DNA of 10,713 nt from the NCBI GenBank assembly GCA_016840405.1, contig JAEOSK010000057.1, positions 1 to 10,713 on the forward strand, written 5' to 3'. This document shows, one piece after another, positions 1 through 4,866 of the stretch. Positions within the stretch are counted from its first letter, which is position 1, and each line of letters starts with the position of its first letter. Source of the stretch: Candidatus Hermodarchaeum yapensis (GTDB taxonomy: Archaea; Asgardarchaeota; Hermodarchaeia; Hermodarchaeales; Hermodarchaeaceae). The notes under the pieces were generated by a model, which had not been told where the DNA came from, ran no database searches, and saw nothing but the letters and a program-made list of their open reading frames with translations. A program made the translations under genes and the position numbers.

Positions 1-677
1 ATGCGAACTTCGAGTTCGCGAAGGAGAAGCCGATAGCATCGTCCCAGTTCCTTTCGGCTGATGCGGCTGTGGTGGGCGATTTCATCGAGGGTTCGGGGGA
101 CTTGCCGTAGGCGACACGCGGCGTATACGCAGGAGGCAATCATGGCTTCAATACTACGACCACGGATGAGGTGGTGTTCAATAGCCCGACGATAAAGGAT
201 AGCTGCTGCTTCTTTAACTGGACGTGGAACACCAAGTTGGCTGGTCAATCGATCAAGTTCACTCATTGCATACGCTAAGTTGCGGTCAATACTAGAATGA
301 ACTCGAGTTCGAATCTGCCATTTTCGAAGCCGGTAGATTTGAGCCCGCCGGCTAGGAGCCAATTTTTTGCCATAGGCATCACGATTGCGCCAGTCAATCA
401 TAGTGCTAAGGCCTTTGTCGTGGACGGTATAGGTCATGGGGCTGCCAACGCGGCTGCGTTTGTCGCGTTCTTCTGAGGTGAATGCCCGCCATTCGGGTCC
501 CTGATCAACCATATGGGCATCGATTACGAGCCCGCAATTTCGGCAGATGATTTCTCCGCGAGTTGTGTCGCGGATGACTTCTTGTCCGCTGCAATCAGGG
601 CAACGGGTTGCTTGGTGAGCTGCCTCAGGCGGTGCGACTCGTAATTTGTCTTCCACAAAAGGTGTTTCTTCAACCAT
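1..677 (-). CDS. tfb: Transcription initiation factor IIB (TFB), 5' part; runs off the window start
   Basis: Manual translation from ATG at 677: [96 protein letters not shown]...[17 protein letters not shown]...[32 protein letters not shown]. It contains the Zn ribbon (CPDC...CRNCG), the B-reader GPEWRAF and the first cyclin repeat. The frame is open to position 1. Confidence 0.97.
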
Positions 678-855
678 TACTCTTTCGACCTTCTTTCTCC
701 GATGAAGAGGGGACGGGGGCGGTTAGAGAGTCTGCTCTCTGTTAGAGCGTCGTCCCAGTCCAATGTTGAATGTTAGTTTTTCCATCGCCCGCTGGTTGCG
801 ATGAAAAGTTGTGCTAACTTTGTCTGTGTTTGTGGTATTTTTCCCCGCTTGGAAT

Positions 856-879
856 GGCGAAACCTTTATAAGGTTCGCC
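856..879 (-). promoter_or_regulatory. Putative tfb promoter (BRE/TATA) inside an inverted repeat
   Basis: Plus strand GGCGAAACCT-TTATA-AGGTTCGCC. The minus strand reads GGCGAACC-TTATAAAG, a BRE-like purine stretch plus TATA pointing toward tfb. Confidence 0.55.
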
Positions 880-1050
880 TTTAGAAAACCGCGTCCCAGC
901 CTTTTAAAGCTTTCTTCAATCATATGTGTAACTATACCAATGTTGATGTTATCTTTACACATATTCTTGTAGTACCCGACTAAAATCTGTTTTTTGAACT
1001 GGTTTTCACGAAAGGGCGAAAATGTTTACAAAATCGTGAAATTTTGAGAG

Positions 1051-2043
1051 CTATTTGGTGGTAATTTCTATGCCGTCTTTGGTTACGAGAAAGGTGTGTT
1101 CGGCTTGTGAAACATAGCTACCTTTGATGTCGGCAAGAACACTGTATTGTCGAACTGCTTTTTTGGTAGTGAGTTCTCGCATCCCGAGGGCTAGGCTGAG
1201 TTTGGGTATGTGTTTTGCGACGTAGCGACGACTAAAGGGAAGGGTTTTGAATTCTCGGGCAACGAGTCGGACGATATCGCGGGCCCCTTGGTTGCGGAGA
1301 GGGATTCGAGCGGGATTGAGGCTGAAGATGTAGTATTGGCCTGTTTCGTGAGCACTCCCGGTGCCGGTGGTGGCGAAAGTTTCGAGGGCGTAGGCTTCGC
1401 CTTCTTCTAGAATGGATCCGTGAGGGACGGCGATATTTGGTAGGTTTTTGGAACCGTGGAGGAGGTATTCGTCCAGCTGGTGTCCGCTGAGGTCGCGGAT
1501 AGGGCGGTATCCGAAGCCTTTAATGGTGTCTTCGATGATTTTTCCGAGATCTTTACTGTTGGTTTTGGGTCGAATGAGAAGGAGGGCTTTATCTAACGCT
1601 TCGCGGCTAGCCTCGACCAATTTTTCGAGTTCGGGGTTAAAACTGACAGTTGAAGCGGTGTCTGCGATATAACCATCGATGTGAACACCCATATCCAGTT
1701 TGACGATATCACCTTCTTGGATGAGGGTATCGTCCTCTTCAGGGCTAGTGTAGTGGGCAGCAACCTCGTTTATTGAGATGTTGGTGGGGAACCCAATACC
1801 TCCGCCTAATTCGATAATCCGTGATTCAGCAGCCTCACACAGATCGAAGACTCGGGCACCAACTTTAATTTGGGGGAGGATTTCTTCCCGAACTTGGCTG
1901 GCAATCTTGCCGGCTTTGCGGTATTTTTCCTCAGGTGCTTCTTCTTCCTCTGTTTCTTCTCCTGATTTCGGGGTTTCTTTAGGTTCTTCTTTTTCCTTCT
2001 GCTCCGGTTCAGGTTGTTCTTTTGGTTCATCACGTTTTGCCAT
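1051..2043 (-). CDS. map: Methionine aminopeptidase, type II
   Basis: Motifs FPTNISINEVAAHYT, KLDMGVHIDGYIADTA, GHQL, ALETFAT and SQAEHT give the D,D,H,E,E metal ligands. The type II helical insertion (TLPFSRRY) is present. Confidence 0.97.
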   Translation of the reverse strand: MAKRDEPKEQPEPEQKEKEEPKETPKSGEETEEEEAPEEKYRKAGKIASQVREEILPQIKVGARVFDLCEAAESRIIELGGGIGFPTNISINEVAAHYTSPEEDDTLIQEGDIVKLDMGVHIDGYIADTASTVSFNPELEKLVEASREALDKALLLIRPKTNSKDLGKIIEDTIKGFGYRPIRDLSGHQLDEYLLHGSKNLPNIAVPHGSILEEGEAYALETFATTGTGSAHETGQYYIFSLNPARIPLRNQGARDIVRLVAREFKTLPFSRRYVAKHIPKLSLALGMRELTTKKAVRQYSVLADIKGSYVSQAEHTFLVTKDGIEITTK

Positions 2044-2203
2044 GGTTATCGCAGCCCTGTTGATTAGGTCAGCCAGTTAAAAAGGGGTTCTTTAAGGTTT
2101 ACGTTAACCAATAGCGTGAAACTAAAATTGCTTTAGGTAATTTGCGCAAACACCAGAACAATTTTAGCTTTTCCTCGGCATGTAGCGAACTGAGGTTAAT
2201 AGA

Positions 2204-2578
2204 GTGTCAACCATTGCAAAGAATTTGCAGGAGCTCCTTCGTCAGATGGAGAGTACAACACCTGGGATTGAAGCCAGTGCTGTTGTTACTGCGCAGGGTT
2301 TGCCAATTGTTGCAGCGATGCCACAGACCATTAATGAGGCAATTGTTGCAGCCATGACTGCAGCCCTCTTGGGTGTAGCTGAGCGGGCGTTAACTGAGAT
2401 CCCCCGCGGGAAGCTTATGCAAATTACAGTTGAAGCAGAAAATGGTTATATCATTCTGAAGGGTGCAGGCGAAAATGCAATTCTCACTTCTCTGGTGAAG
2501 AAGAGTGCGAATCTCGGAATGGTCTTCTTGGTAATGAAGCGTTACAGCAGTCAAATTGAGTCGATTCTACAATCATAA
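2204..2578 (+). CDS. Roadblock/LC7 (MglB/LAMTOR-like) domain protein
   Basis: 124 aa with GIEASAVVTAQGLPI, VAAMTAALLGVAERA and QITVEAENGYIIL, typical of the Roadblock fold. GTG start with GAGGT RBS at 2192-2196. Confidence 0.92.
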   Translation: MSTIAKNLQELLRQMESTTPGIEASAVVTAQGLPIVAAMPQTINEAIVAAMTAALLGVAERALTEIPRGKLMQITVEAENGYIILKGAGENAILTSLVKKSANLGMVFLVMKRYSSQIESILQS

Positions 2579-2665
2579 CTCGACTCAGAGATTCTAACAT
2601 ATCTACATTTTGTATGTTGTTCCACGTAGTACCGTCTAATAGGGCAGAAGAGGTGATAGAATTGT

Positions 2666-2734
2666 GGCGGCTCTGGTCCGCCCGTCGGGTCCATCATCTG
2701 GTATCAGGTCCCAATTGCTTTCCTCATTGCCGCC
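2666..2734 (-). ncRNA. Box C/D 2'-O-methylation guide sRNA
   Basis: Minus strand: GGCGGC-A-[C: ATGAGGA 2727-2721]-AAGCAATTGGGAC-[D': CTGA 2707-2704]-TACCAG-[C': ATGATGG 2697-2691]-ACCCGACGGGCGGAC-[D: CAGA 2675-2672]-GCCGCC. It has a 6-bp terminal stem, canonical C-D'-C'-D order and spacing, and lies 21 nt downstream of the tmk stop on the same strand. Confidence 0.85.
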
Positions 2735-2755
2735 GTGATAAAATGGAGTCACAGC

Positions 2756-3355
2756 TTACTTAAGATTTCCGAGAAGGGGTTGTACATACTTTCGTATCTT
2801 GCTTTGCACTTCTTTGATTGAATGCTCAGCATTCACTACCCTAAACCCCGCTTCTTCTGCGCGAGACAAAAAGATTTGACGGACTTTTTCCAGAAAGGCA
2901 GTTCGCTCAAACTTCTCTTTCTCCTTTGATTTTCTTTTTCGACCGAGAGCAACTTGAGGAGAGATATCAAGCAAGATTGTGATATTGGGTGTGAGAGCAA
3001 GTTTGTTTAATTCTCGAACCCATTCCATGTCAAGACCAGATGAAGTTTGATACGCGATGGAAGATTCAACGTAACGATCAGTAATGACGATTTTGCCTTG
3101 ATCGAGAGCGGGTTGAATGCAATTAATTGTATTATCTACGCGATCTGCAGCAAAAAGGAGGGCATCAATTGCTGATGGCACCGAGGAGTCACGTAATACT
3201 TCTCGAATTACCCGTCCAATTCGACCATTAGTGGGTTCATGGGTCTTTACAACTTCGTAACCTTTCGCTGTCAGCCAACTACTGAGAAGTTTTAAGTGAG
3301 TCGTCGTCCCGCTGCCATCAATTCCTTCAAGCGCAATGAATAACCCGTGCCACAT
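2756..3355 (-). CDS. tmk: Thymidylate (dTMP) kinase
   Basis: FIALEGIDGSGTTT P-loop, THEP, ALLFAADR, VITDRYVESSIAYQ and EKFE motifs. ATG at 3355 is preferred; GTG at 3364 is the alternative. Confidence 0.95.
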   Translation of the reverse strand: MWHGLFIALEGIDGSGTTTHLKLLSSWLTAKGYEVVKTHEPTNGRIGRVIREVLRDSSVPSAIDALLFAADRVDNTINCIQPALDQGKIVITDRYVESSIAYQTSSGLDMEWVRELNKLALTPNITILLDISPQVALGRKRKSKEKEKFERTAFLEKVRQIFLSRAEEAGFRVVNAEHSIKEVQSKIRKYVQPLLGNLK

Positions 3356-3396
3356 ATCAATCACATCTGATGCTGATCGTATAATTTAATGTCTCA

Positions 3397-3975
3397 ATGG
3401 AGGGTAAGTCATCAAATAAAAAGGGAATGCTGATGAATGCTTATACTATGAATGTCCAACCATTGTTCGCCTCTTCAGTCTTTTCCATTTTACCTAATTG
3501 TGAAGTATATCAGGTTCTTAATTATGACTATCATGATCCGGAGGGCATTTACAAAGGACTCCTGGAGGATGAGAAGGAGTTTCAACACGAAGTGAAAAAG
3601 ATTCGCTTGAATATGTCTGAATTTCTTGCAGCCGAGAAAGTGTACATCAATGATTATCGTGTTGAACAGAAAATCCTTCATGTGGATATTGGGTTACGAG
3701 GAAGTGCACATGTTCCTTATTTCCAATGGGTAATTCATTTTCAGGGCCCTTTACGCGCCGATGAAAATTCACTGAAAAGCGATGTTGAGGAAGAAATCGC
3801 AGAATATGATATTGAAGTACTATACCTTTTCCCAGCAGGAACCAAAATCAAAGGGGTTCAAACACCGATGGAATATGAAATCCGTGATTTCTTGCTTTTA
3901 GTATGGGCTCGCAAGGGAGATAGAGTGGGTGGACACGAAGAGGTTCTATTTCAGTTTCCGTCAACTTTGGATTAA
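3397..3975 (+). CDS. Archaeal hypothetical protein
   Basis: 192-aa ORF with protein-like composition (QVLNYDYHDPEG, NMSEFLAAEKVYIN, EEEIAEYDIEVLYLFPAGT), resembling uncharacterised archaeal proteins from memory. The true start may be a downstream ATG such as 3448. Its 3' end overlaps the convergent gene by 15 nt. Confidence 0.75.
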   Translation: MEGKSSNKKGMLMNAYTMNVQPLFASSVFSILPNCEVYQVLNYDYHDPEGIYKGLLEDEKEFQHEVKKIRLNMSEFLAAEKVYINDYRVEQKILHVDIGLRGSAHVPYFQWVIHFQGPLRADENSLKSDVEEEIAEYDIEVLYLFPAGTKIKGVQTPMEYEIRDFLLLVWARKGDRVGGHEEVLFQFPSTLD

Positions 3976-4866
3976 CCTACCGCAGGTGTAACAATATTTT
4001 GTCCCAGTCGTGATTTTTGCCTGGCAGTAAGGACATTTATCAAGAGCAGCCTTTGCCTCTTTTTTAACACCCGTTTTGGGTTTCTTAGCGGAAATTGTAG
4101 GAGGTGGAGCAGCACTCCCAAGAAGTGATCTTAACCCCGAAATTATGCTCGTTAATTTGTTGATTTCTTCATCAATGGCTTTGAGCTGTTTGTTTACATC
4201 CCGTTTTGATATCTCGTCGATTCGGGCACGAATTTGCAAAGTTTCCCTATCAAATTCAAGTTGTTGTTTCCGTTCCTCAAGTTGAACTAGCCAATGATTA
4301 GCAGTTTTAATTTTGGTATCAAGTTGCTGGTTGATGTCAGCTAGTTTGCCGTTATATTCAGTTGAGAGCCGTTGGTGAACTATTTCATCAACTTCTCCTG
4401 ATTTTAGAAGCGCTTCTAGTCGTTGAATGCGACCTTCCTGAATCGTCTTTTCTTGTTGAAGCTGTTCAAGGGGAGTTAGGGCTTTGCTTTCTAGTTCTTC
4501 AATTTCCTTTTGAATAGGGTCCAATCTGTTTTTCAACTTGTTGAGTTGGTCTTGTGTTTCTTGGTCAGAGAGTTCACCGACTAGTTGTTTGACCTTCACT
4601 GTTTCTTGCTCTTCATCCAATGCAACCTTCTGTGTTCGGAGGGTTTCTAGTTTTCCTCTCATAATTAGAGCAGCTTCAACTTGTGGAGGGATTGACTCAA
4701 CTTCTCGTGCAGGTTCAGCACTGGGCGATACGGCTACGCTGGGCCGATTTACTTCAGCGGGGGTCACAGCTGCATGACGTTCTTTCAAAAAAACACCACA
4801 ATACGAACAGAATTTGGCATTGGGTTTCAGTTGCCGACCACATTCAGAGCATTGCGGGCTTGACAT
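3961..4866 (-). CDS. Zinc-ribbon protein with CdvA-like coiled coil, with a ribbon at each terminus
   Basis: N-terminal CSECG...KFCSYCG and C-terminal CPYC...KYCYTCG. The central coiled coil has G/D-E-[LVI]-[SD] turns (QLVGELSD, LKSGEVDE, ARIDEISK). ATG at 4866 is preferred over TTG at 4875. Confidence 0.8.
   Translation of the reverse strand: MSSPQCSECGRQLKPNAKFCSYCGVFLKERHAAVTPAEVNRPSVAVSPSAEPAREVESIPPQVEAALIMRGKLETLRTQKVALDEEQETVKVKQLVGELSDQETQDQLNKLKNRLDPIQKEIEELESKALTPLEQLQQEKTIQEGRIQRLEALLKSGEVDEIVHQRLSTEYNGKLADINQQLDTKIKTANHWLVQLEERKQQLEFDRETLQIRARIDEISKRDVNKQLKAIDEEINKLTSIISGLRSLLGSAAPPPTISAKKPKTGVKKEAKAALDKCPYCQAKITTGTKYCYTCGRLIQS

Follow-up and report, generated by a model that had tools for sequence, protein, structure and literature searches.

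A conserved box C/D sRNA of Asgard archaea with a predicted guide to C1402 of the 16S rRNA and a variant kink-turn

The sRNA locus and its gene neighbourhood

The window, i.e. the whole stretch of 10,713 nucleotides that was analysed, represents contig C8 of a 2.7-Mb genome assembly with a G+C content of 44.7% and a completeness of 86%. The host is an Asgard archaeon, as the original prediction had considered possible, and the GTDB class of the window comprises 19 genomes that belong to one family and two genera. The genes encoding fibrillarin (PF01269, 300 bits) and Nop5 (PF01798, 223 bits) are located side by side on contig C18, and L7Ae (PF01248, 93.5 bits) is encoded on contig C30.

The predicted box C/D sRNA occupies positions 2666 to 2734 on the minus strand. 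Its upstream neighbour is the tmk gene encoding thymidylate kinase (positions 2756 to 3364, minus strand; Pfam PF02223, E = 1e-50), and its downstream neighbour is a convergent gene encoding a Roadblock/LC7 protein (positions 2204 to 2578, plus strand; Pfam PF03259). The sRNA starts 21 nt past the tmk stop codon. The original prediction had drawn attention to the synteny at tmk, and the gene order roadblock-sRNA-tmk turned out to be kept across several families: tmk adjoins the sRNA in the families f1, f2, f3 and f7, with an inverted orientation in f2, and the Roadblock gene adjoins it in f1, f2 and f7.

The last two codons of tmk (Leu-Lys) together with the stop codon constitute the sequence CTTAAGTAA (positions 2756 to 2764, minus strand), probably a TATA-like promoter element, at a distance of about 26 nt upstream from the sRNA. 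This sequence is nucleotide-identical, synonymous positions included, in all 17 f1 loci, among which are loci of the sister genus at which tblastn detected no tmk gene. At an equal distance, the other families contain TTAAATAT, TTTATTT or AAATAAT, and every family thus has an A/T-rich sequence resembling a TATA box at about 26 nt upstream of the RNA. Since CTTAAGTAA is identical and is placed where the TATA box of the sRNA would be, a single sequence under two constraints is suggested, and we infer an independent sRNA promoter that would overlap the end of tmk. A run of T residues is located just 3' of the RNA in most homologues; the window has only AATTC at this place.

Architecture of the predicted box C/D sRNA

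Read on the minus strand from position 2734 to position 2666, the deduced RNA of 69 nt extends from the 5' stem to the 3' stem in the order GGCGGC-A-AUGAGGA-(13 nt)-CUGA-UACCAG-AUGAUGG-(14 nt)-CCAGA-GCCGCC and is recovered by the covariance models R1 and R2. The originally proposed box C/D sRNA with a full C-D'-C'-D arrangement and a GGCGGC/GCCGCC stem is accordingly borne out by the sequence and by its conservation. In the terminal stem, GGCGGC as the 5' half (positions 2729 to 2734, minus strand) pairs with GCCGCC as the 3' half (positions 2666 to 2671, minus strand). In the wider family, changes on both sides were observed in four of the six base pairs of this stem, with 94% of the cells paired. 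The predicted fold of the RNA has a closed terminal stem and a free energy of -25.1 kcal/mol (z = -2.6).

The remaining features are likewise encoded on the minus strand. In the Lilley nomenclature of kink-turns, box C provides the nucleotides G1b, A2b, 3b and 4b, and box D provides 4n, 3n, G2n and A1n. Accordingly, box C with the sequence AUGAGGA (positions 2721 to 2727) specifies G2725 as 1b, A2724 as 2b, G2723 as 3b and G2722 as 4b. It is followed by the D' spacer AAGCAAUUGGGAC of 13 nt (positions 2708 to 2720), an orphan guide that varies between the species of the genus, by box D' (positions 2704 to 2707), recognised by its sequence CUGA, and, 6 nt past box D' and separated from it by the loop UACCAG, by box C' with the sequence AUGAUGG (positions 2691 to 2697), which reads AUGAGGU or AUGAAGU in other species of the genus. 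The D spacer ACCCGACGGGCGGA of 14 nt (positions 2677 to 2690) contains the guide core CGACGGGCGG, which extends from position 2687 to position 2678 and pairs with C1399-G1408 of the 16S rRNA. Box D with the sequence CCAGA (positions 2672 to 2676) is interpreted by comparison with relatives as C(4n), C(3n), an inserted A2674, G(2n) and A(1n).

G2725 and A2724 together with G2673 and A2672 provide the tandem sheared G.A pairs that are characteristic of C/D RNAs, and these are located beside the 6-bp terminal stem. Another feature of archaeal C/D sRNAs, a pair of D' and C' boxes inside the RNA with a short loop between them, is also present and is kept in the genus. The archaeal consensus is departed from at 3b:3n, which is not U:U, and in box D, which comprises 5 nt (C-Y-A-G-A) in the genus. 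Moreover, the spacers of the window RNA have lengths of 13 and 14 nt, as compared with 12-13 nt in f7 and f3. The C-D' and C'-D spacers of sRNAs from thermophiles typically comprise about 12 nt, and those of the window RNA are longer.

Chance expectation and comparison with Rfam models

A regular expression covering the four boxes matched 21 sites in the genome, as compared with two to four sites in shuffled sequences, with most of the real matches located within open reading frames. Among these matches, an intergenic position, a terminal stem of 6 bp and a match to rRNA are combined only at the locus described here, and no match with a stem of at least 6 bp was obtained in the shuffled genomes. 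With regard to further C/D sRNAs of the genome, strict consensus patterns gave no match and relaxed patterns matched mostly inside open reading frames. Half-units were loosely defined as a C-like box, 10-16 nt and a D-like box; 10-nt matches to rRNA beside such half-units numbered 27 in the real genome and 23 in a control with reversed spacers. Since the 10-nt match is not enriched genome-wide, a match alone is no proof of a guide, and the weight of the evidence is carried by conservation.

A scan of the whole window with Rfam models at E <= 10 yielded nothing at positions 2666 to 2734, and the model RF00095, when applied to the whole genome, gave weak matches elsewhere and none at the sRNA locus. 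As the C/D models of Rfam are guide-specific, this comparison is a weak test for the presence of a C/D sRNA.

Conservation and distribution of the sRNA

Homologues were searched for by BLAST, followed by the covariance model R1 and then by the broader model R2. Of the 14 genomes that represent the genus, 12 yielded the sRNA, as did all four from the sister genus, and R1 and R2 additionally detected homologues carrying this guide in many other Asgard families. At E <= 0.05, R2 matched 58 of the 151 sampled genomes of the phylum, with the reservation that a few of the weakest matches are devoid of the guide and probably represent other C/D RNAs.

An alignment of 13 sequences from the genus revealed little or no variation in both halves of the terminal stem, in the boxes C, C' and D and in the guide core CGACGGGCG, whereas the D' spacer, the loop and the flanking regions are variable. 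In alignment A1, none of the 14 f1 sequences deviates from the guide core CGACGGGCG. Boxes and a guide that were not shared by relatives would have spoken against the original prediction; conservation was found instead, at the levels of the genus, the sister genus and the wider set of families. Judged by sequence and conservation, the locus can be regarded as confirmed to specify a genuine, conserved box C/D sRNA.

Pairing of the D guide with the decoding site of the 16S rRNA

The 16S rRNA gene of the host is present in a single copy on contig C71 (positions 619 to 4212) and has a length of 3.6 kb, being interrupted by inserts. Its decoding site reads CCUUGCACACA, followed by 31 inserted nucleotides and by CCGCCCGUCGCUCC. 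The guide core CGACGGGCGG is the exact complement of CCGCCCGUCG, which corresponds to C1399-G1408 in E. coli numbering, and ten Watson-Crick pairs are thus possible with the organism's own 16S rRNA. The pairing of the D guide with 16S positions 1399-1408 had been predicted from the sRNA, with a tenth pair on condition that position 1408 is a G; the guide turned out to match at ten of ten positions, and G1408 is indeed present in the 16S rRNA of the host. In the whole 2.7-Mb assembly the target 10-mer occurs at two places only, one of them within the 16S gene and the other on the strand opposite to the sRNA. All sampled 16S genes of the phylum carry a G at position 1408 (CCGCCCGUCGCUCC; L028-L042, 16S 3' regions from 15 genomes), and the Rfam archaeal 16S consensus has an A. 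G1408 is the eukaryote-like state, and CCGCCCGUCG with G1408 is common to eukaryotes and this phylum.

A comparison with the other families provided further evidence for the pairing. The one 16S sequence available for family f3 (L040, genome G031) reads ACACUGCCCGUCG and thus carries the substitution C1400U at a near-universal position. In the f3 guide CGAUGGGCAGU, an A replaces the G (GGGCAGU as compared with GGGCGGU) and compensates C1400U. This compensation in trans between a predicted guide and its putative target is the strongest single argument for a real pairing. The guides of two further families are imperfect, with an A opposite C1404 (position 7) in f7 and an A opposite C1403 (position 6) in f21, both of which represent internal A.C mismatches; in several families an A of the guide is located opposite C1399.

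These data also bear on the question of whether the locus is an independent RNA gene. The 3' untranslated region of tmk might instead contain a GC-rich hairpin that acts as a terminator or stabiliser and resembles a C/D RNA by chance, which would fit the position 21 nt past the stop codon, the lack of an Rfam match and the abundance of loosely matching boxes in this GA-rich genome. For such a hairpin, conservation of the stem would suffice, however, and the boxes and the 9-nt guide core are invariant as well; furthermore, the RNA is kept in f2 with its inverted tmk gene, the f3 guide co-varies with the 16S rRNA, and the family is spread across the phylum. A chance resemblance within the tmk transcript is accordingly considered very improbable.

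As an alternative target, the A-loop of the 23S rRNA had been proposed. The local 23S sequence of the host is GUACGCCUGUU, which pairs poorly with the guide, as position 3 of the latter is mismatched and two of the pairs are G.U, and this candidate was rejected. The 23S gene of the host is split over the ends of the contigs C17 and C60 (L002-L004), with overlapping partial model matches and extra sequence, an arrangement that fits the presence of several inserts and an assembly break within the rRNA operon.

The D' guide had been left without a target in the original prediction, and the outcome was the same when seven D' spacer variants, from the window and six relatives, were compared with the 16S rRNA, the 23S rRNA and the 16 tRNAs detected by aragorn in the 86% complete assembly, in which many tRNAs are missing: no convincing or consistent site was found. 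The D' arm is therefore treated as an orphan.

Sequence variation in the C/D kink-turn

The kink-turn formed by boxes C and D was compared among 23 distinct sequences of the family. The 3b-3n pair is A-U in 13 of them, G-C in six and G.U in four and is broken in none, and the 4b-4n pair is an invariant G-C. Position 5 of box C is a G or an A in the families f1, f2, f3, f7, f18 and f20 and a U in f8, f13, f14 and f21, the latter four having the canonical combination AUGAUGA/CUGA. Box D reads CCAGA or CUAGA in the genus, CUGA in the sister genus and CCGA in f3. Within the genus, AUGAGGA is combined with CCAGA and AUGAAGA with CUAGA, and a G.U pair is found in the sister genus; the window has the G-C pair 2723-2675 as 3b-3n. 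The switch between G-C and A-U in the genus represents a single phylogenetic event.

As a standard 3b-3n pair is possible in 23 of the 23 sequences, the variation points to a Watson-Crick pair accompanied by an inserted A and not to a third G.A pair, the latter being rejected on account of the covariation at 3b-3n. The original description of this kink-turn is consequently retained in part: the usual U-U pair is indeed replaced, and the proposed extra G-A apposition was dropped since position 5 of box C covaries with the pyrimidine of box D. On these comparative grounds, a bulged A within box D is clearly preferred, with some reserve, to the earlier reading of the box as CAGA. The series U.U, A-U, G.U and G-C looks like a stepwise drift during which a pairable 3b-3n combination would have been kept.

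The combination AUGAGG...CCGA of f3 and of the window genus is one that we take to resemble the U4 kink-turn. The kink-turns of archaeal and human C/D RNAs are strongly U:U at 3b:3n, and G:C is strongly conserved at 4b:4n (PMC5689011). A Watson-Crick or G.U pair at 3b-3n makes the folding of kink-turns dependent on an L7Ae-type protein, Mg2+ alone being insufficient; the kink-turn of U4 snRNA, in which 3b-3n is biased to G-C or G-U, folds only upon binding of a protein of the L7Ae family (PMC4382518). Because the Watson-Crick pair G2723-C2675 at 3b-3n is of the kind present in U4, folding of the window kink-turn would be expected only with L7Ae bound. The 5' stem-loop of U4, which binds 15.5K/Snu13, likewise has a G-C or G.U pair at 3b-3n followed by a G-C pair. 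In contrast, the U4 motif is part of a stem-loop with a pentaloop, whereas the motif described here is the terminal C/D motif of a methylation guide and, in the window genus, contains an additional A between 3n and G2n. The likeness to U4 implies no link to Prp31-type proteins.

For the insertion in box D between 3n and 2n, we know of no described precedent. A precedent for an inserted nucleotide on the non-bulged strand is provided by the complex or non-standard kink-turns Kt-11 and Kt-15, and complex kink-turns tolerate a non-linear mapping of their core nucleotides (PMC5061560). Kt-11 and Kt-15 are ribosomal, whereas the insertion predicted here is located in box D.

The register of box D and the predicted methylation site

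In all homologues with a box D of 4 nt, the N+5 rule points to C1402 when counted from the first C of the box. At the junction of guide and box, the sister genus reads GGA-CUGA, family f3 GU-CCGA, the families f2 and f20 AU-CUGA, and the families f7, f8, f14, f18 and f21 GU-CUGA. In the window genus the guide is unchanged (CGACGGGCGGA) and precedes CCAGA or CUAGA, which corresponds to the box with one additional A before the GA. Counted from C2676, G2681 faces C1402 at N+5. Since relatives have the same guide and the box is longer by one A in the genus, the extra nucleotide appears to belong to the box and not to the guide, and C1402 is the likelier target as compared with G1401. The original prediction had named G1401 on a strict reading of CAGA or, alternatively, C1402 with one guide nucleotide looped out; C1402 is now regarded as likely and G1401 as less likely, with the extra nucleotide placed inside box D.

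The same sRNP could nevertheless methylate G1401 if the inserted A were part of a box D of 4 nt (CAGA or UAGA), which would shift the ruler by one nucleotide. Strict N+5 counting from CAGA does give G1401. This reading needs, however, a G.A or A.A combination at 3b.3n and G-C or G.U at 4b.4n, i.e. two unrelated substitutions that occur together, and we know of no Gm1401 in any domain. The guide is also unchanged with respect to the sister genus, which has the canonical CUGA. A bulged A, in contrast, results in a clean switch between G-C and A-U at 3b-3n and in an invariant G-C at 4b-4n as in the relatives, in agreement with the published preferences (PMC5689011). Methylation of G1401 by the window sRNP is therefore regarded as unlikely, though not negligibly so.

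In two homologues, that of genome G011 from the same genus (L059) and that of genome G067 from family f13 (L101), one further nucleotide is present between the D guide and box D. The distance between guide and box is thus not absolutely fixed in evolution, and the predicted site would shift by one in these cases. Such a drift of the register, which the G1401 reading can also claim in its favour, would be compatible with a shift to G1401 in some lineages or with a function that depends more on the pairing than on the exact methylated nucleotide.

A hairpin insert directly upstream of the target

The 16S gene of the host contains a hairpin insert of 31 nt exactly between A1398 and C1399 (L001:804-834; genome G000, contig C71, minus strand), i.e. 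directly 5' of the sRNA target. This site carries inserts of 31-33 nt in the genus, in the sister genus and in one genome of family f12, among them those of G014, G007, G016 (sister genus) and G029 (family f12), and 10 further 16S genes sampled from the phylum have none. In the consensus fold of the inserts, ACAC of the exon (1394-1397) pairs with an invariant GUGU to give a 4-bp helix; a single A bulges out next, and a helix of 5 bp, in which compensatory changes occur, leads to an ARA bulge of 3 nt before the exon. A canonical bulge-helix-bulge was not found in this consensus fold, which yields a relaxed motif only. Small hairpin introns are known from archaeal 16S genes, and the published catalogue contains the locus 1391 and not 1398 (PMC4496867). 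The insert probably represents a small hairpin intron whose position is missing from that catalogue.

A role of the sRNA at the 1398/1399 splice site is conceivable. The sRNA might hold the first ten exon nucleotides after the intron and thereby chaperone folding of the decoding centre or supply in trans the helix beside the bulge at the 3' splice site, with methylation being secondary or lost. Such a function would account for the complementarity beginning exactly at C1399, the first nucleotide past the insert, and for the insert being devoid of an obvious exon-exon outer helix. Moreover, guide position 1 is an unpaired A in all intron-bearing f1 genomes and a U that pairs with A1398 in most families without the insert in their available 16S sequences, and the register drift suggests a weaker constraint on the exact methylated nucleotide. 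The difference at guide position 1 represents a single phylogenetic contrast, however, and all four boxes that are needed for the placement of fibrillarin are conserved. The splice-site role is further weakened by the distribution of the two elements, since the closed f12 genome G029 has the insert and no detectable sRNA homologue, and since the sRNA with the same guide is kept in many families without a 16S insert. A function that consists primarily in pairing is accordingly given a low probability.

Proposed mode of action and relation to known guides

The most probable explanation, which is held with reasonable although not full confidence, is that the locus encodes a C/D sRNA guiding a predicted 2'-O-methylation of C1402 in the 16S rRNA and containing a U4-like kink-turn with an inserted A. 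The sRNA of about 70 nt would be transcribed independently, L7Ae would bind to the terminal C/D kink-turn and to the internal C'/D' motif, and Nop5 and fibrillarin would assemble next. The D guide of 10-11 nt would pair with C1399-G1408 of the 16S rRNA at the decoding centre, and fibrillarin would 2'-O-methylate the nucleotide paired with the guide residue that is fifth upstream of box D. With box D read as C-Y-(A)-G-A and A2674 as a genus-specific insertion, either looped out or absorbed in the kink-turn, the target would be C1402. The anatomy of the sequence, its conservation, the covariation within the RNA and between guide and target, and the occurrence of the protein genes are established by the data presented here, whereas transcription, RNP assembly, methylation and the exact methylated nucleotide are what we infer from them.

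A 2'-O-methylated cytidine at the position equivalent to C1402 has been mapped in P. abyssi (Cm1369), yeast (Cm1639), human (Cm1703) and plants, and E. coli contains m4Cm1402 (PMC11542601). For the archaeal sR12 of Pyrococcus and Sulfolobus, the snR70 site is the predicted target (Gaspin et al. 2000, as cited in PMC3511168), and the supplement of Dennis et al. (2015) lists 16S C1389* for two sRNAs, which corresponds to C1402 when A1395 is mapped to E. coli A1408. Hoeppner and Poole assigned SNORD43/snR70 to the last common ancestor of eukaryotes and regarded orthology and convergence with sR12 as indistinguishable (PMC3511168).

When compared by description, sR12 shares with the window RNA the property of being a box C/D guide predicted for the C1402-equivalent Cm; it is unlike the window RNA in that the latter is from an Asgard archaeon and has spacers of 13-14 nt, a Watson-Crick pair at 3b-3n and a box D of 5 nt with an inserted A. 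The eukaryotic guides SNORD43 (U43), snR70 and AtU43 (clan CL00059) are directed to the same decoding-centre cytidine, namely Cm1639 of yeast, Cm1703 of human and Cm1645 of Arabidopsis (PMC11542601, PMC3511168). The SNORD43/snR70 genes are intronic, whereas the window sRNA has its own TATA-like element. The models of the SNORD43/snR70 group (RF00221 and RF01238) did not match at the locus at E <= 10, and no homology was detected beyond the guide. As any likeness to the eukaryotic RNAs would be confined to the guide, which is dictated by the target, convergence is possible. The original prediction had stated that an Asgard host would bear on the ancestry of snoRNAs; the host is an Asgard archaeon, and the bearing is limited since sR12 and its possible orthology with SNORD43/snR70 have already been discussed (PMC3511168).

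A more far-reaching combination of these elements can be envisaged, in which the Asgard-wide guide would be the direct evolutionary counterpart of SNORD43/snR70 and, in the lineage of the window, would also act on the unspliced 16S precursor, with the guide duplex replacing the missing outer helix beside the bulge at the 3' splice site and with the U4-like, A-inserted kink-turn being part of a specialised RNP. This scenario is speculative and has a small probability in our view; if true, methylation at the decoding centre would be coupled to the removal of a 16S intron.

Conclusions

The function deduced for the sRNA, a guide for Cm1402, is already known from other archaea and from eukaryotes. 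The new aspects are the Asgard-wide distribution of the guide family, its synteny, the co-variation in trans with the 16S rRNA and the variant kink-turn. The targeted C1402 contacts the P-site codon, and its ribose methylation is among the very few that are common to bacteria, which use a protein enzyme, and to archaea and eukaryotes, which use guide RNAs. The candidate pairing of sR12 with SNORD43/snR70, which was proposed from Pyrococcus and Sulfolobus, is hereby extended to the Asgard archaea. Additionally, the family provides a natural series of kink-turns with U.U, A-U, G.U and G-C at 3b-3n, and with G-C or A-U plus an inserted A, that is usable for the analysis of L7Ae-dependent folding and of the N+5 ruler.
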